Shown here piece by piece: positions 9,971 to 17,794 of a stretch of DNA of 17,794 nt. Each line of letters opens with the position of its first letter. Position 1 is the stretch's first letter. This DNA comes from a virus. Taxonomy: Duplodnaviria > Heunggongvirae > Uroviricota > Caudoviricetes. Location of the stretch: IMG/VR virus record IMGVR_UViG_2671180275_000001. One strand, given 5' to 3'. Below the pieces are notes generated by a model. It made no database searches and was not told the DNA's origin. It saw only the letters and a list, made by a program, of their open reading frames with translations. The position numbers and the translations under genes are program-made.

Positions 9971-10182
9971 CAGAACCTCGCCAGCCGGTACCCGGGATGC
10001 CCCCGTCGTCGTGTAATCAGAGCCGCAAGGCGGCGCTCCCACTCCTGCCGCCCCTGCCGGATCTCAGATAAGTTTTCCATGGTCATCTGCTGACCATTAA
10101 AAGTGACGGATTTTCCGTCCAGCACTGCCATTTCAGCTTCCGTATAACGCTGAATCATGGCTTCAATATCATTCTGATTCAT
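9970..10182 (-). CDS. W: head-tail joining protein, lambda gpW-like
   Basis: 70-aa ORF (MNQNDIEAMIQRYTEAEMAVLDGKSVTF...RRRGHPGY). Lambda W is about 68 aa and ends ...QRRRGPAGFYV. ATGA overlap with the terminase stop, as for lambda A-W. GGAGG lies 6 nt upstream. Confidence 0.6.
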   Translation of the reverse strand: MNQNDIEAMIQRYTEAEMAVLDGKSVTFNGQQMTMENLSEIRQGRQEWERRLAALITRRRGHPGYRLARF

Positions 10183-11291
10183 AACCATCCTCCGGAAGTC
10201 AGCCAGGGGTTAACATCGTCAGTTACTGTTTTCTTCCGTTTTTGTTTTTTAACAGGCGTGGATACCGGTTCCGGTGTGGGTGACGGTTCGGTACTGTCCG
10301 GGACACACTCCAGCCAGGTTTCCCGGCTCGCCCACTCCGGTGCATCCGGCCAGCGGATCTTTTCGTATCCATGCAGAATGACCAGAGCCTCGGCATACAC
10401 CATCAGGTCAAAAGCTTCGTTGGCACCGCGACCCGGCTTACTCCATTTCCCGTCACTGCTCCGCTCTTCATACGTCAGTTCGTCGTAAAACCAGCTCCCC
10501 AGCCAGTCAGGGAAATGCACATAGCCGGGACCTGGCGAGTCACGCCATAACGCGTTATTCACCCTGTCTTTCAGGGCATCCGTCTGAAGAAGCCAGAGCG
10601 GTACATCACCTGCGGCCTGCGCCCGTCGGCCCGTTCGTCCGGTGTTATCAGGGAATGTACGGGTGATCAGTTTTGCGCGCCGGATGCTGTCGCCCTTAAA
10701 CAGGTAAATACGTTTACCAAGGCCATCACGACGGCAACGACGCCAGAATTTATAGGCATTATCAGTGACCCCGTCTTCACCGCCGGAGTCCACCGCCATT
10801 GCCATCAGTCGCATTTGTTGAGAAGGATCGGAGGCCAGCGGCCAGCTTTTATGAAAAACATCCGTCAGCAGGACATCCCAGTCTTCCGGATAGCTGGCCG
10901 GATCAATTCGCTGGCTCTCCCCGTCGCTGTCACCGCGCAATGACTGCGTGATGTTGTAACGATCAATAATCCAGCGTTCGCCACGGCTGCCATAGCCCGT
11001 TACCTGAACCACAAAACGGCGATGACGTCCCGCCTGCACATCCACTGTCGCCACAAGGAAATTAACGCCATCCGGCACACTGCGGGAAGGAACTGGCTCT
11101 GCCCGCTGCTCAAGCAATTCACTTTTTCGTTGCTCCATGCTGGCGCGGGGAAGATAAGGTAATCCCCAGTCGGTATTGATAACCGTCTTGAGTGTCTCTT
11201 CACTTCCGGTTGTCTCGTATTCCTGTTCTGCAGTAAGCAGTTTGTAAACGAGTTGCGAGAGTGTCTGATAAGCAGCTGCCGGCCCCTCCAT
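10179..11291 (-). CDS. A: terminase large subunit, gpA family, C-terminal portion only (5-prime truncated; probable pseudogene)
   Basis: 370-aa ORF matching the C-terminal part of lambda gpA (LVATVDVQ vs LTAGIDSQ; AVDSGG vs WDTGG; NEAFDLMVYAEAL vs NEALDCFVYALAA). Frame is closed by a stop 11 codons upstream of the ATG; no SD; upstream DNA is AT-rich and non-coding. No Walker-A N-terminal domain. Confidence 0.8.
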   Translation of the reverse strand: MEGPAAAYQTLSQLVYKLLTAEQEYETTGSEETLKTVINTDWGLPYLPRASMEQRKSELLEQRAEPVPSRSVPDGVNFLVATVDVQAGRHRRFVVQVTGYGSRGERWIIDRYNITQSLRGDSDGESQRIDPASYPEDWDVLLTDVFHKSWPLASDPSQQMRLMAMAVDSGGEDGVTDNAYKFWRRCRRDGLGKRIYLFKGDSIRRAKLITRTFPDNTGRTGRRAQAAGDVPLWLLQTDALKDRVNNALWRDSPGPGYVHFPDWLGSWFYDELTYEERSSDGKWSKPGRGANEAFDLMVYAEALVILHGYEKIRWPDAPEWASRETWLECVPDSTEPSPTPEPVSTPVKKQKRKKTVTDDVNPWLTSGGWL

Positions 11292-11345: not shown

Positions 11346-11659
11346 TACTACCTCCTACATAGTCCAAGATTTAGTACCTGCTTAAACGATAAAAAAAGAA
11401 ACAAAAGCAGCAATATTAATTAAAAGCTGAATGATGATGGGGGTACGCTTGTGTCTGATTCCGGTAACGCGGTGGATTAATCCCAGTATTTCGGCTTCTG
11501 TCATTGTGCCCCCATCGCGCTGGTGAAGAAAACAAGCTCAGATTTTTTGTAAAGAATCTGTCACGCTAAAAGATGTCGAACAAAAAATAACCTTCTTCAT
11601 CATCTTTTTCACATCAAAATAATTAAAAACAATCACTTACGCACATGATGATGATGACG

Positions 11660-11760
11660 ATAAAATCAAAAAAATGCGCTTTTTTCCGCGCCGCCCGCCC
11701 CGTGTTCAGGCCCACCCCACCAGGAGGACCCGCAAAAAAGGCGGCTGGTGCCGCCTTGTT
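11660..11760 (-). repeat. conserved ~100-bp element, copy A (terminator plus conserved distal block)
   Basis: Aligns at roughly 85% identity with 14198-14299 (ATAAAATCAAAAAATGCGC...TTTTTCCGCGCC...CCGCCCCGTG...CAGGCC...ACCCCACCAGGAG...AAAAAAG + hairpin). Identity is by eye. Confidence 0.6.
11733..11756 (-). terminator. intrinsic terminator after the second protease/capsid gene
   Basis: Minus strand GGCGG-CACCAG-CCGCC followed by TTTTTT, starting 6 nt after the stop at 11762. Confidence 0.6.
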
Positions 11761-11761
11761 G

Positions 11762-13651
11762 TCATAGTGAATCTGTCCCGCCTGATTTGACCATACCGCG
11801 ATAATCCAGAGCTGCCACACCTGCATCAATACGGACTTTCCAGGCCACGCCGTCAACGATAAAACCTTCCTGCTGTTCAAGGTAAGGCTCGTCATTGCCA
11901 TCAAGATAAGCCACCTCGATTGTGTCAGTTCCCTGTGCGGAAAGCATGTACCATTGTTTTTCGCTGATATCATCAAGGCGGGGATCGACGATGATATCAA
12001 GTAGCTTGTGGTACGGGTTAAAGATCCCGCTGTTTTTATCAGCCCCGAAAGGTGCGGTTGAGTTAATCATCTGCAACGCGCGATCTTCCAGTGCTGCCGG
12101 AACTAAAAGGAATTTAGGCGCAATATTCAGCACTTCGCCATTTTTGTCCTTCTGTGTGCGCATCAGGTGACGTGCTGCACTAAGTCCCGATGTTGTCAGT
12201 CCTGCTTCAATCAGGTTGCTGTGTTTTTTGTCAAACAGCGTTATTCCGTCAGAAAGTTTTACGTTGCCTGTAAGCACCAGATTAACCAGATTTCCCACCG
12301 TTCTTGATGCTGCACGGCCCATAGCCATTGGCACCGTTGATAACTGATCAAGGTCATCATTGATTATCGCCTGGCGGGTAATGCTGAAAATATTCCCGTA
12401 AGTAGCCAGCGCGATGGGTTCACCGCGATCGCTGGTGGTGATGTATTTATATTCTGCCCCTTCCGGCACTTTGCTTAACGTAGAGAAACCATTCAGGCCA
12501 ACGCGGCGGGCTTCACGAAAGTTTGAAAGGGAACCTTTTTTCGTCCACTGGCGGAATGTTTCGCCGCTGTGCTCCCAGCCTGCAAGCACTGATTTTTCAG
12601 CGCCACCAGCAAGGATATCGGTAAAATCGCTGCTGCTGTGGTTGAATGCCGCGTTTACTATCTGCGAGCGTGTGCCGTAGCTGCCCGTGCTTATACCACG
12701 ATGGGTTAATGATGCCTGTGCCATATCGAAAAGACTCATCATGGCGTAAGGATTACCGCGTTCGGCCCGTTCGTGACCAAGACGCGCATTAAGCCCCTGA
12801 CGCATGGCATCGCCAGTTATATTGCCGTTATCCGTGTACGCGTAGTAAAGATTTGCGGGGGTGGTTTTGTTTGTTGGCGTTGATTCTTTACCCATAGCGA
12901 GTAAAAGGCGTTCGCGTGCATTCTCAACGCTACATTCTGAATCCGCAAGACAACTTATAGCCAGGTCGTTATATCTTCCGTTGAAGGTGCCAAACAATTC
13001 ACGGATTCCGTTAAGTCGTTCCTGTTCGCCACTGCCAGTTTTCTGGCTGATCATGCTTTTAATTTTTTCCGGCATATTTGAAAAATCTCCGATTCGTTTT
13101 GATTCAATTCGGGCCATTGCTGTAATCGCGGGTATAACCTCATCTGCGAAGCCGTTAGCCTTACACTCATTGCCATCCATCCAGGTTTCCGCCTCCATCA
13201 TGGCGGTGATTTCCTGTTTGCTCCTGCCCGTTCTTCCGGCGTAGGTTTCTGCCATCGTGTCGCCCAGCTTGTCCATCAGGTCAGCAAAGCGGCGAACGTC
13301 GCCCGACACTCCGGCAGTAACACCACGGGGGGTATGTATCATCATCATCGCGTTTTCAGGCATAACGATGTGATCGCCACACATGGCAATAAACGAGGCC
13401 ATAGAAGCCGCCATGCCCTCAATGTGTACAATTTTCTTTGCCGGATGATTTTTCAGGGCGTTATAGATAGCCAGCCCTTCAAAGATGTCGCCACCAGGTG
13501 AATGGATGCGAAGATGGATTTCAGACGCATTACCACACGCGTTGATCTCGTCAGTAAGTGCCGATGCTTTTACACCGTACCCGCCGATCTCGTCATAAAT
13601 GCGCACATAGACAACATCTGCCATAGCCTTAATGGAAAACCATGTTTTCAT
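11762..13651 (-). CDS. second fused ClpP-like protease / HK97-fold major capsid protein (629 aa), divergent paralogue of 6490..8448
   Basis: Same domain order and motifs (RIYDEIG, HSPGGD, GMAASMAS, MMMIHTPRG, PEGAEYKY, FSITRQAIINDDL, TDTIEVAYLDG, KVRIDAGVA). AGGAGA lies 6 nt upstream of the ATG at 13651, which overlaps the stop of the upstream small ORF (ATGA). Confidence 0.85.
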   Translation of the reverse strand: MKTWFSIKAMADVVYVRIYDEIGGYGVKASALTDEINACGNASEIHLRIHSPGGDIFEGLAIYNALKNHPAKKIVHIEGMAASMASFIAMCGDHIVMPENAMMMIHTPRGVTAGVSGDVRRFADLMDKLGDTMAETYAGRTGRSKQEITAMMEAETWMDGNECKANGFADEVIPAITAMARIESKRIGDFSNMPEKIKSMISQKTGSGEQERLNGIRELFGTFNGRYNDLAISCLADSECSVENARERLLLAMGKESTPTNKTTPANLYYAYTDNGNITGDAMRQGLNARLGHERAERGNPYAMMSLFDMAQASLTHRGISTGSYGTRSQIVNAAFNHSSSDFTDILAGGAEKSVLAGWEHSGETFRQWTKKGSLSNFREARRVGLNGFSTLSKVPEGAEYKYITTSDRGEPIALATYGNIFSITRQAIINDDLDQLSTVPMAMGRAASRTVGNLVNLVLTGNVKLSDGITLFDKKHSNLIEAGLTTSGLSAARHLMRTQKDKNGEVLNIAPKFLLVPAALEDRALQMINSTAPFGADKNSGIFNPYHKLLDIIVDPRLDDISEKQWYMLSAQGTDTIEVAYLDGNDEPYLEQQEGFIVDGVAWKVRIDAGVAALDYRGMVKSGGTDSL

Positions 13652-13842
13652 AGCCAGTCTCCTAACGTTGCCCTGTACCAGTATTCAACCGCGCTTCTCG
13701 CAATCTGCCCTTTCGTGGGTACTGGCATTCCAGGGTGATTACTTTTAATGAACTGCTGATAGCGTTCTATCTTTTCCATAGTTCCGGCGTCTATGTGTAC
13801 CGTGGCACTTTTATCCGGCTTTCTGGTGTTGTTCTCTGGCAT
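13648..13842 (-). CDS. small protein (64 aa) translationally coupled to the second capsid gene; possible ribbon-helix-helix fold
   Basis: Start at internal ATG (MPENNTRKPDKSATVHIDAGTMEKIERYQQFIK...GQIARSAVEYWYRATLGDWL) with GGAGG 7 nt upstream. Strand-helix-turn-helix pattern is a guess from residue periodicity. Confidence 0.45.
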   Translation of the reverse strand: MPENNTRKPDKSATVHIDAGTMEKIERYQQFIKSNHPGMPVPTKGQIARSAVEYWYRATLGDWL

Positions 13843-14033
13843 AAATCCGCCTCCGTTTTGATTAACGGGCATCATTATTGATCGACAAAAGTAATAGATA
13901 AATCATTTTCTACCTGAAAATCAGATTATGTTTTTTCTGATTATTCTCAGAGAGGCAAAGCCATTGACGCATTTTTGCTATTGAAGCAATATTAAGACTC
14001 GTCATCATGGCGATAAAAACTCCTTTGTCGTGT

Positions 14034-14074
14034 AAAAGCGCCTCCGGTAACAGCAATCGGGGGCGCTTTTTTTT
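14034..14074 (+). terminator. plus-strand intrinsic terminator-like hairpin in an intergenic region
   Basis: Plus strand GCGCCTCCG-GTAACAGCAAT-CGGGGGCGC (9-bp stem including one G-U pair) followed by T8. In the minus orientation only TTTT follows. Confidence 0.5.
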
Positions 14075-14197
14075 GCGCCTGTTTTTTTGTAAATGTTTTC
14101 GGGAACGTTCCAGTGATGAACAAAAAACAACCTGATTCGACACTAAAAATTTTTATTCCTCAATATATCAATAGCTTATAGTGGTGGTGATGGTGCC

Positions 14198-14299
14198 ATA
14201 AAAATCAAAAAATGCGCCTTTTTCCGCGCCCCTCCGCCCCGTGGACAGGCCACCCCCACCAGGAGTACCTACAAAAAAGCCGGATTTCTCCGGCTGTTG
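14198..14299 (-). repeat. conserved ~100-bp element, copy B (terminator plus conserved distal block)
   Basis: Second copy of the element at 11660-11760; directly 3-prime of the PerC-like gene. Confidence 0.6.
14272..14296 (-). terminator. intrinsic terminator after the PerC-like gene
   Basis: Minus strand AGCCGGA-GAAA-TCCGGCT followed by TTTTTT, starting 5 nt after the stop at 14301. Confidence 0.6.
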
Positions 14300-14300
14300 A

Positions 14301-14573
14301 TTAGCTGTCTGGGTAATTACGCCATATTTCATCGCTTACACCATCTATACCCATTTCAGCATAAGTGCGATCGACTACCTTTCTCAGGTCTCCGAAGTTA
14401 TCCGGCGGCTCCGGTGGCCTCTGTGCCTTCCTGGAACATTCCAGCCGTCGCATCGTAACCTGATGCCGTTCCTTGTCTGTCTCCACCAGCTGCATGACTT
14501 CACCCCATCGCGCCGCCGCCCTCCGGTAAAATCCTTTCGCCTCGAGTTCCTCCGCTATGCGGTCATGTATCAT
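14301..14573 (-). CDS. PerC-family-like small transcriptional regulator (90 aa)
   Basis: N-terminal IAEELEAKGFYRRAAARWGEVM matches the AExLExKG-(F/W)-RRAAxRW signature I associate with PerC/Pch proteins. ATG at 14573 with GGAGAG upstream. Confidence 0.5.
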   Translation of the reverse strand: MIHDRIAEELEAKGFYRRAAARWGEVMQLVETDKERHQVTMRRLECSRKAQRPPEPPDNFGDLRKVVDRTYAEMGIDGVSDEIWRNYPDS

Positions 14574-14785: not shown

Positions 14786-14990
14786 CTCCTCACTCATGCT
14801 CACTTTTACACCTCACTTTTTAAAGCGTCTCGCTTCGTCTCACTTGATATTTTTTGATGCTTTATGTGTGTGTTTCATAAGGATTTTTTTACTCCTCACT
14901 TTTGAGCATGTATACAGGTGAGAAAGTGAGTAATCGTGTTAATATTTTGTAAAAACCTCACCATTACTCACTTTTGCTACTCACTTTTTA
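14786..14990. repeat. iteron-like direct repeats (CTCACTTTT) flanking an AT-rich spacer; candidate replication origin
   Basis: At least six direct copies of (C)TCACTTTT plus one inverted copy (GTGAGAAAGTGAG) around an AT-rich stretch at about 14846-14892, immediately 3-prime of the helicase-like gene. Confidence 0.5.
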
Positions 14991-16388
14991 CAGTGGTCCT
15001 ACATCATCACCATCAATGTAAATCACGGCGTCTTTTTCCAGTTTGGCTAACCATCGCCGCATATTTTTCACGTCATACCCAAGCCGTTTCATGTCATCAC
15101 GTAACAGCGGGATCGTGCACTTGTCGCCGTTCTGTGTGCGTGAACGGATGCACCCCCATAGTGCGGTATGGTTTTCCGTCTTGTTGCCTGCCTCCTCGAT
15201 GCGTTCCAGTTCAACGGGAGGGCGCGGCTTATCCACCACCACCAGCGACGTGATTAACTCCCCGTCAGCGTCGGTAAACAGCTCCACCACGCGTAAGTCA
15301 TATGCGGCTTCTTTGAGTTCCTCCGCGTCCTTCATTTTGGTGCATGAGATAACCAGCGCTTCGCTTCCTGCGTCCTCCCTGCGTATCCGGTATTCAGCAT
15401 CCAGCGAAGCACGAAATGCACTGGAACCGCGCGCGCCTTTCGTCTCATCCTTGCCGGAATGGTGAACCACCAGCACCGTGGCCCCTGTGCGTCGTTTCAG
15501 TTCGTCACAACCACGGATAAACGCCCCCATATCACGGGAATCATTTTCATCATTCCCACCAAAGCAACGCGCCAGCGTATCCAGAATAATCATGCGTACA
15601 GGTTTACCCGTTTCCCGCTCCACCTGACGGGCAGCGATAACCATTTCATCAACATCAAGCGGGGCAGCCGGAAAGATGGGGCGGTTTACCAGATACAGAT
15701 TTTTCACCTGCTCATCGTGCACAACCTCCCAGGCTTTTACACGACGCGGAACACCTATACCGCCTTCACCAACCACATAGAGAACCGCACCATGTGCAAC
15801 CCTGCGGCCTCCCCACTGGCGACCAGTGGCAACATGGCACGCCCACGATCCGGCAAGGAATGATTTATAGGACCCGCTAGCCCCGTATATGCTGCACAGC
15901 GATACCGCCGGAATAATCCCCTTAACCACGTAATCAAGTTGTGTGTCGTATCCGGCAGATCCCACGCTCATTGGTAGCGTGGTTTTTCGCTGGTGGTGTT
16001 TTTCTTCCCCTGGCTTTTTCCCCCGCTCCCGTTCCAGATATTCGCGCCAGTTCTCCCGCTTCTGGCTGTGCATCCCTTCGGGGTAATAATTCGCATCAGT
16101 TACACCCGCCGCCGCCAGCTTGTGCGCAATGGCATTAATATTTGATGGCCTGATGTGGCCTGCCTTGTACAGCCGGACACAATAGCGCCCCTCGTCGATG
16201 ATTCTCAGGTCTGCCAGTTCATCCAGTTGATCATCAGCCAGCACAACGGGAGGCACATTATCGCCAGCCAGTCGCCCGTCCTGTTCCTGCCACTGTTTCG
16301 CATGTGCCCAGGCATCACTACCCGCAAAAATAATGACTTCGGTCATCTTGTCGTAAGGCTGTTTTTTTAAGTTCGGTGCGCTTTTCAT
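14988..16388 (-). CDS. replication protein: RepA/DnaB-like RecA-fold P-loop helicase (AAA_25-like) with an N-terminal domain of unclear type
   Basis: Walker A YGASGSYKSF and Walker B MIILDTLARCFGGNDEND, with LVVHHSGKDETKGARGSSAF downstream, as in RepA-type hexameric helicases. ATGA overlap with the upstream 99-aa ORF. Confidence 0.75.
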   Translation of the reverse strand: MKSAPNLKKQPYDKMTEVIIFAGSDAWAHAKQWQEQDGRLAGDNVPPVVLADDQLDELADLRIIDEGRYCVRLYKAGHIRPSNINAIAHKLAAAGVTDANYYPEGMHSQKRENWREYLERERGKKPGEEKHHQRKTTLPMSVGSAGYDTQLDYVVKGIIPAVSLCSIYGASGSYKSFLAGSWACHVATGRQWGGRRVAHGAVLYVVGEGGIGVPRRVKAWEVVHDEQVKNLYLVNRPIFPAAPLDVDEMVIAARQVERETGKPVRMIILDTLARCFGGNDENDSRDMGAFIRGCDELKRRTGATVLVVHHSGKDETKGARGSSAFRASLDAEYRIRREDAGSEALVISCTKMKDAEELKEAAYDLRVVELFTDADGELITSLVVVDKPRPPVELERIEEAGNKTENHTALWGCIRSRTQNGDKCTIPLLRDDMKRLGYDVKNMRRWLAKLEKDAVIYIDGDDVGPL

Positions 16389-17540: not shown

Positions 17541-17701
17541 GTTGGCAGCCTCCTCAGTGTGGTTAAGATAACCGCCACGCAAAAGGCTAATTTCGCTGGT
17601 GGCGGACTGTACAGGGTTAGCCTTACCGGACACTGAAGAAACCGGCGCGGATTGCTCCGCCCCCGTACAGCCCACCATTGATAAGGTGTGACTATGCGGC
17701 A

Positions 17702-17725
17702 CAAAAAAACACGCGGGGCGCGTGC
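17702..17725 (-). terminator. intrinsic terminator-like hairpin closing a transcription unit that lies beyond the window end
   Basis: Minus strand CACGCG-CCC-CGCGTG followed by T7. Confidence 0.4.
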
Positions 17726-17794
17726 TGTGCGCTTCAGTTGTTTTCAGGAGGCTAATCCCGACACCCGTTTTATGAGGTGCGCGGGAATCATAGC

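Follow-up and report, generated by a model that had tools for sequence, protein, structure and literature searches.

A candidate small-RNA gene facing a lambda-type cos site in a helper-embedded phage satellite of Escherichia coli

What would an intrinsic terminator serve if every gene around it lies on the other strand? The question is raised by a hairpin at positions 14036 to 14075 (+ strand) of a caudoviricete DNA of 17,794 nucleotides (IMG/VR record IMGVR_UViG_2671180275_000001), which was analyzed in its entirety and is called the window below. The first-pass annotation had placed every gene of the region on the − strand, which we confirm for all real genes around the hairpin, and had suggested that a short + strand RNA, antisense to the leader of the capsid operon, ends there.

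The satellite and its cos sites

[quoted passage not shown] 2023), the late gene here being terL. The C-terminal half of terL (10179 to 11291, − strand; Pfam GpA_nuclease), which encodes a lambda gpA-type large terminase, abuts the island, and in O157:H7 strain F3113 the same island is flanked by both terL halves; in E. coli JNEC-KY208, an identical island sits in the chromosomal gene tqsA. HE-PICIs are laid out in four zones, namely, integrase/AlpA, Bro/immunity RNA, replication, and late (Tommasini et al. 2023). The integrase end of the present island lies outside this window, which holds, all on one strand, a C4 antisense RNA (17595 to 17682, −; Rfam, 75 bits) with an IsrK RNA beside it (17704 to 17780, −; Rfam, 62 bits), a helicase (14988 to 16388, −; Pfam AAA_25), PerC (14301 to 14573, −; Pfam), a cos site, and a capsid gene. 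C4 and IsrK presumably make up the satellite's immunity RNA system of the P4 CI/seqA type, and P4 CI/seqA-like immunity RNAs have been reported for Gram-negative PICIs (PMC10111431). Pfam also finds DUF4222 in the satellite, and a search of the window for tRNA and tmRNA found none.

The late operon begins with a gene for a 75-aa protein (13648 to 13875, −), which belongs to phrog_4934, a family whose function is not known, and which had no match in Pfam; with this protein as the probe, we fetched 76 IMG/VR loci at 54 to 96% identity. The gene that follows encodes a ClpP-like prohead protease/major capsid fusion (11762 to 13651, −), according to Pfam (CLP_protease and Phage_capsid_4) and to the RefSeq label of an identical gene. 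The 75-aa gene, which is widely conserved, is invariably followed by the protease-capsid fusion gene; no Shine-Dalgarno sequence is visible ahead of it, and directly adjoining its start codon is a conserved TTGATCAAT motif.

The intergenic gap between the PerC gene and this operon spans 425 bp (13876 to 14300), the length given by the first-pass annotation, and the − strand terminator that it assigned to the PerC (replication-zone) operon was recovered by terminator scans at 14295 to 14278. The same annotation took the gap for the place of the capsid operon's promoter and leader; this holds for a late-promoter and leader block at 13876 to 13945 (−), which can be aligned with relatives down to 54% protein identity, whereas most of the gap is occupied by a lambda-type cohesive-end site, cos1 (14112 to 14277, −), recognized by homology to the phage region upstream of terS. 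Over 14110 to 14277, identity is 90% to the Stx-type phage 1720a-02 and to CP-1639 and 75% to mEp460, and the cos1-like stretch of those phages is located between the lysis genes and terS, stopping ~30 nt short of the start codon of the latter. The cos1 core reads CCACGGGGCGGAGGGGCGCGG on the − strand (pattern CCACGGGGCGG..GGCGCGG), with a cosN-like GGGCGGAGGGGC at ~14240 to 14229, and resembles the cosN of lambda, GGGCGGCGACCT. In a multiple alignment, the phage homology ends near 14090 to 14110, so that the hairpin falls outside the homologous stretch and begins where phage terS would begin; it thus lies at the junction between the phage-derived cos and satellite-specific DNA.

Two further observations concern the cos sites themselves. 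A second site, cos2 (~11560 to 11735, −; cosN-like sequence at 11700 to 11689), directly follows the capsid-gene terminator (11755 to 11740) and aligns with cos1 up to ~14076; the two are direct copies that flank the 2.5-kb capsid operon, as in EcCICFT073. The gene upstream of cos1 is PerC here and in JNEC-KY208 and SSB in O157-type copies (L082). Since this upstream gene varies while the segment from cos1 to the capsid gene is constant, modules have been exchanged at the terminator just upstream of cos1.

With a packaging site this close, the hairpin could be an element of DNA rather than of RNA, namely, an extension of cosB that binds TerS, IHF, or a satellite factor and looks like a terminator only incidentally. 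Counted in the packaging direction, it lies ~155 to 200 bp beyond the cosN-like site, directly after the phage-homologous cos; GCGCC motifs occur at 14040, 14076, 14214, and 14226; and E. coli PICIs carry a satellite-specific cosB (PMC6739421). We nevertheless regard this as very unlikely. The phage homology already spans the normal length of cosB, up to ~30 nt before the phage terS start; neither cos2 nor the cos of two close relatives (L114 and L115) is accompanied by the hairpin; nine satellite or flanking ORFs gave no terminase-small-subunit match, the signature to be expected of an Rpp-like DNA-binding domain, in Pfam, which holds no dedicated Rpp model; and a palindrome for protein binding would leave the long T-run on one strand unexplained.

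The hairpin and its orientation

The + strand letters at 14036 to 14075 are AAAAGCGCCTCCGGtaacagcaaTCGGGGGCGCTTTTTTTT (also given as AAAAGCGCCTCCGGTAACAGCAATCGGGGGCGCTTTTTTTT), that is, AAAA followed by the arm GCGCCTCCG, a loop, the arm CGGGGGCGC, and T8. The hairpin can be drawn as the GC-rich 9-bp stem with an 11-nt loop that the first-pass annotation described, and its minimum-energy fold has ~13 to 15 pairs and a 7-nt loop; in either form it has the shape of an intrinsic terminator, with a stem of 9 to 13 bp, 8 G-C pairs, and T8 directly behind. The folding check suggested with the original description gave −32.3 kcal/mol for the + strand RNA from 13995 to 14080 (z = −4.0), and none of 200 dinucleotide shuffles was as stable. 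Our own terminator scan required a stem of 8 bp or more with 6 or more G-C pairs and, in the 8-nt tail, 7 or more T; across both strands of the 17.8-kb window no other site passed, and 60 dinucleotide shuffles of the whole window yielded 0.017 sites of this kind on average. A standard terminator scan, which allows loops of up to 8 nt, passed over this main hairpin for that reason and reported an overlapping second one at 14061 to 14080 (+; GGGCGC-T8-GCGCCT and then GTTTTTTT, with the T-run extending to 14090), which may be an alternative or back-up terminator. The main hairpin is therefore a real feature, beyond chance, and the strongest terminator-like structure in the window, and we consider it a putative + strand intrinsic terminator. 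Read from the other side it is weaker: the reverse-strand fold reaches −18.1 kcal/mol (z = −2.0), an A.C mismatch takes the place of the U.G wobble found on the + strand, and the stem is followed by UUUUAC, the mere four T's that had been pointed out for this strand.

The relatives bear on the question of which strand the hairpin serves. Of 5,426 complete E. coli genomes, 144 carry the 236 bp of 13876 to 14111, always in the chromosome and always whole, many of the carriers being O157, O111, O103, O121, and O145 STEC, and in none of these genomes does the segment bear an annotated feature. The carriers include EAEC 042 (predicted RNA at complement 945311..945389 of NZ_CP042934.2), JNEC-KY208 (NZ_AP045181.1, near 2,362,5xx), and O157:H7 F3113 (NZ_CP038374.1, near 2,568,0xx). 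Scans for more variants by sequence pattern, in IMG/VR and in metagenome contigs, brought up no context or lineage beyond these. Among 77 loci from capsid-fusion relatives in other genera, we found no equivalent reverse-facing terminator upstream of the fusion gene, and there the noncoding DNA is too diverged for alignment. Strain Sakai is absent among the matches listed for the O157-type copy as the query (60 of 62 records, at least 99% identity), and, with the Sakai prophages Sp12, Sp13, Sp6, and Sp10 inspected, the element appears to be absent from this strain, which would put it outside the published EHEC RNA maps and the reach of the Sakai Hfq-CRAC/EcOnc data.

The original proposal was to be given up if the hairpin proved not to be conserved in homologues; of the 28 distinct close sequences, only L114 and L115 lack the hairpin and T-run. 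Among the others are two diverged lineages. In SCU-111 (83.6% identity; L081), the stem arms are identical, and in L116/L119 one G has been lost from the 3′ arm, leaving a bulged T (a score of 5/10 reflects the alignment shift caused by this deletion). The + strand T-run measures T6 to T9 in every copy that bears the hairpin, while the − strand tail, TTTT in the window, decays to TTT(A/G) in SCU-111 and L116. The U.G wobble of the stem, present in all copies, pairs only in the + strand RNA, and so does the G.U pair that replaces the outermost G-C pair in L286; a G-to-A change in L084/L095 creates a C.A mismatch on the + strand and a G.U pair on the − strand, and among four metagenome copies, T9 and one G-C to G.U change were found in addition. 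The second hairpin is likewise kept in all close copies, and the third GC block of SCU-111, GTGCC, gives G.U pairing on the + strand only. Because the T-run is always T6 to T9, the − strand tail decays, and the wobble and the L286 pair form only on the + strand, we favor the + strand as the one that the hairpin serves. The covariation analysis suggested at the outset covered only three lineages, across which the stem is either invariant or altered by wobbles and a bulge, with no double compensatory change, so that covariation neither supports nor contradicts the fold.

The relatives also indicate where the late promoter must lie. In L114 and L115 (92% protein identity), the order is a terminator, cos, a sense terminator (GCCGGATTTTTTCCGGC + TTTTTTGC), a conserved block of ~65 nt, and the 75-aa gene, and in relatives at 54 to 65% identity a sense terminator is found 75 to 135 nt upstream of the 75-aa gene, with the same block immediately behind it. 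These sense terminators would confine the late promoter of the present island to ~13876 to 13945, and a + strand unit at 13964 to 14075 would then lie upstream of it and point away from it rather than run over the leader. The part of the first-pass proposal in which the RNA is antisense to the capsid-operon leader is thus not borne out by this layout, in which the predicted unit starts only at 13964, upstream of the late-promoter block. A promoter scan of 13876 to 13945 found no sigma-70 consensus promoter, and for this reason the late promoter probably depends on an activator. Within the same block, an inverted repeat, AATCAGA-N10-TCTGATT (13918 to 13942), may be an operator or activator site, for which the adjacent PerC is a candidate regulator.

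In this comparison, the hairpin occupies the position that a sense terminator holds in the relatives. Since the distant relatives have a plain sense terminator there and no + strand unit, the segment from 13950 to 14110 behaves as a sublineage-specific, moron-like insert with a predicted promoter and terminator of its own. The same comparison can also be read in another way, in that the hairpin may be an insulating or bidirectional terminator without a dedicated RNA, which separates cos1 from the late promoter. It would then stop transcription from both sides, residual early read-through beyond cos as well as stray antisense transcripts that run from the capsid region toward cos, and any promoter upstream of it would be fortuitous or unimportant. 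An ordinary sense terminator between cos and the late promoter in L114/L115, and one directly before the late-promoter block in the distant relatives too, are what such a function would lead one to expect. The A4 and T8 flanks recall the bidirectional intrinsic terminators reportedly described by Ju and colleagues in Nature Microbiology in 2019, which share the GC-rich hairpin between an A-tract and a T-tract, and the − strand does fold, at −18 kcal/mol with a UUUU tail. Bidirectional terminators, however, are usually found between convergent genes, whereas here there is no annotated + strand gene and the two tracts are unequal. The − strand version is weak (A.C mismatch, four U, z = −2) and its tail decays to three U, while the + strand always keeps at least T6; the PerC operon already has a good terminator upstream of cos; and a conserved −35 element, −10 element, and spacing ~70 nt upstream would go unexplained. 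We therefore consider an insulator without an RNA unlikely, though it is the main rival reading.

The predicted unit and its conservation

The promoter in question, ~70 bases upstream of the hairpin on the same strand, is sigma-70-like (13964 to 13992, +) and consists of a −35 element TTGACG (13964 to 13969), a 17-nt spacer, and a −10 element CAATAT (13987 to 13992). The first-pass annotation had noticed the TTGACG at about 13964 and found its −10 spacing poor, an objection that is lifted by CAATAT, whose spacing is acceptable and kept in diverged copies; the promoter scan itself returned an alternative reading, with TTGACG at 13964, an 18-nt spacer, and AATATT. With 3 to 4 of 6 consensus bases, the −10 element is weak, and the site is one of only 6 promoter-like sites in the whole window, where 17 are expected from shuffles. 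The chance that such a site precedes a given terminator by no more than ~80 positions, and in the right orientation, is ~0.04 by our own arithmetic from the shuffle rate (17 sites per 35.6 kb). TTGACG is kept in all close copies and becomes TTGACT in L116; where the window has CAATAT as its −10 element, the O157 type has CAGTAT and L116 has CACAAT, with A2, A5, and T6 invariant; and the spacer stays at 17 nt even though L116 differs at 8 of these 17 positions. The spacer's inverted repeat (TTGCT-N5-AGCAA), considered as an operator, was rejected because it is not kept in the O157 variant.

Transcription from this promoter would start near 13997 to 14001 and end at the 14036 to 14075 terminator, at ~14070 to 14075, with the second T-run as a backup that could extend the transcript to ~14090. 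The predicted product would be an RNA of ~70 to 78 nt, whose 5′ part (13997 to 14037, +) varies between lineages and folds into little structure, with only a weak AU-rich hairpin. A short + strand unit that ends at the hairpin, as originally envisaged, thus remains the best reading of the predicted promoter and terminator.

We judge this unit to be noncoding because its sole + strand ORF (42 codons, 14007 to 14135) runs through the terminator and a − strand ORF beneath it is truncated in most copies; the statement that no convincing + strand ORF ends at the hairpin accordingly stands, and in the O157 variant the ATG of the + strand ORF is lost. The − strand ORF (14008..13910, 32 codons) deserves a word of its own, as the + strand RNA could be the antisense partner of a type I toxin. 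AAGGAG precedes this ORF, its ribosome-binding site and start would be covered by the predicted RNA, and it is open in SCU-111 and L116. It shrinks, however, to 14 codons in the O157 type, which accounts for 14 of the 28 distinct sequences, and stops at codon 22 or 27 in others; the peptide is neither conserved nor consistently hydrophobic, and the one part of it that is conserved, the C-terminus, falls on the conserved promoter DNA. Truncated as it is in the majority variant, the ORF was rejected as a toxin gene, and we give a type I toxin-antitoxin pair hardly any credence.

Divergence across the segment is uneven. In comparison with SCU-111 and L116, identity is 63 to 66% over the 41 nt that precede the stem, 93 to 95% over the T-run region, and complete (11/11 positions) in the 5′ arm; the first predicted transcribed bases, AAGACTC, are kept across lineages. 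Among 23 close sequences, the body of the predicted RNA has 2 variable sites in 71 and the flanks 30 in 229 (Fisher p = 0.014), a low diversity of the main lineage that may, against a gene, reflect recent ancestry rather than constraint. The uneven divergence also bears on the idea of a neutral relic, according to which the hairpin once terminated a gene that was lost in module shuffling. Its location exactly at the module junction, between phage-derived cos and satellite-specific DNA, and a target search without a significant hit (see below) would suit a relic. Stem and long T-run, however, were kept while the adjacent 41 nt diverged, and so was the promoter geometry (the loss of one G in L116/L119 notwithstanding), and we regard a functionless remnant as quite improbable.

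Because the promoter geometry, AAGACTC, and the T-run are kept while the 5′ body varies by lineage, the reading that we prefer, tentatively and somewhat short of calling it probable, is that 13964 to 14075 is a hitherto undescribed orphan sRNA gene and is expressed. We infer both the transcription of this unit and a function of its RNA from sequence features.

Possible roles and related systems

As an sRNA gene, the unit would be a moron-like insert between cos1 and the late promoter, opposed to all late genes of the satellite and of its helper; it is aimed at cos and stops ~35 nt before the phage-homologous cos region. Two functions can be envisaged. The RNA could act in trans, probably in association with Hfq, like the prophage sRNAs that are set against a late operon. 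Alternatively, the unit could act by its convergent orientation, with RNA and hairpin keeping early read-through that crosses cos out of the late operon, and the terminator would also shield cos from the unit's own transcription. In the second case, the relevant property would be that the RNA is complementary to sense transcripts crossing cos1, be they early read-through or Q-modified late transcription of the helper. A more specific version, which we think improbable yet worth stating, is that of a satellite regulatory RNA in the conflict between satellite and helper. The RNA would then pair in trans with mRNAs of the helper or the host, or, alternatively, convergent transcription would trigger the processing of transcripts crossing cos1, either read-through or Q-antiterminated late transcripts of the helper; such processing would uncouple the expression of the satellite's capsid gene from helper transcription.

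Searches for a family and for a target yielded neither, which counts against the sRNA reading. For the hairpin, Rfam gave no family, whether the window was searched at gathering thresholds or 13850 to 14320 at permissive E-values, the best match in the latter interval being ctRNA_p42d with 24.3 bits against a threshold of 50, and none of the papers searched in full text contained the hairpin sequence. A target search over 13 translation-initiation regions (11 in the window and 2 in phage 1720a-02) gave none that was significant after multiple testing. The best region was the Shine-Dalgarno sequence of the capsid gene, which would pair with CUCCUUUGUCG of the RNA at −25 kcal/mol; 1% of shuffles reach this value, and SCU-111 has not kept the pairing. 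An 11-mer at 12736 also matches, but no better than expected by chance.

Small RNAs carried by prophages, such as AgvB, AsxR, StxS, and HnrS, are emerging regulators of physiology and virulence in Shiga-toxin-producing E. coli. In position and architecture, the closest analogue of the predicted unit is HnrS (EcOnc10/11/12), a verified, Hfq-associated EHEC sRNA of 66 nt with an intrinsic terminator and the target hha (Poudyal et al. 2026, PMC13502914). In three Sakai prophages (Sp9, Sp10, and Sp12), its locus occupies the space between Rz and HNH/terS, on the strand that the late genes do not use (PMC13502914). Like the predicted unit, it encodes a short RNA with its own promoter and terminator, opposite the late genes and between lysis and packaging genes; in Sp12, all neighboring late genes are on the other strand; and both are found mainly in the same STEC/EPEC population. 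They differ in that HnrS sits by HNH/terS in HK97-type prophages and the present unit by a lambda-type cos in a satellite, in that the two share no sequence similarity, and in that HnrS is experimentally verified with a target whereas the present RNA is predicted. The anti-sRNAs AgvB and AsxR (51 to 60 nt) combine a conserved 3′ terminator with a variable 5′ part and are likewise inserted against a late operon (Tree et al. 2014, PMC4104026). The pattern of a conserved 3′ and a variable 5′ part recurs in the predicted unit, but AgvB and AsxR occupy the PR′ moron site downstream of Q rather than cos, there is no homology, and Hfq binding has been shown for them while our RNA is a prediction. Searching with blastn-short against the Sakai loci of HnrS and AgvB returned only chance words of 11 to 16 nt.

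On the side of the satellite, the counterpart is EcCICFT073, a PICI with cos1 and cos2 and with helper-like cosQ and cosN (Fillol-Salom et al. 2018, 2019; PMC6739421). Both satellites have two lambda-like cos sites. EcCICFT073, however, has its own cosB, read by Rpp-TerS, whereas here the phage homology continues through the length of cosB and the nine ORFs searched have no domain of the terminase-small-subunit type in Pfam (again, without a dedicated Rpp model). We know of no antisense unit described beside the cos sites of EcCICFT073, and, to our knowledge, phage satellites have been studied almost wholly at the protein level, the P4-type immunity RNAs aside.

The present unit is a candidate for one of two kinds of element that are already known, a phage or satellite sRNA moron or an insulating terminator. 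If it is a terminator only, it would be an ordinary insulating element. If its RNA takes part in the conflict between satellite and helper, it would be the first sRNA shown to act in the late/packaging module of a PICI. More generally, should the unit prove to be a conserved RNA that is transcribed independently beside the packaging site, it would add an RNA layer to the biology of these satellites.
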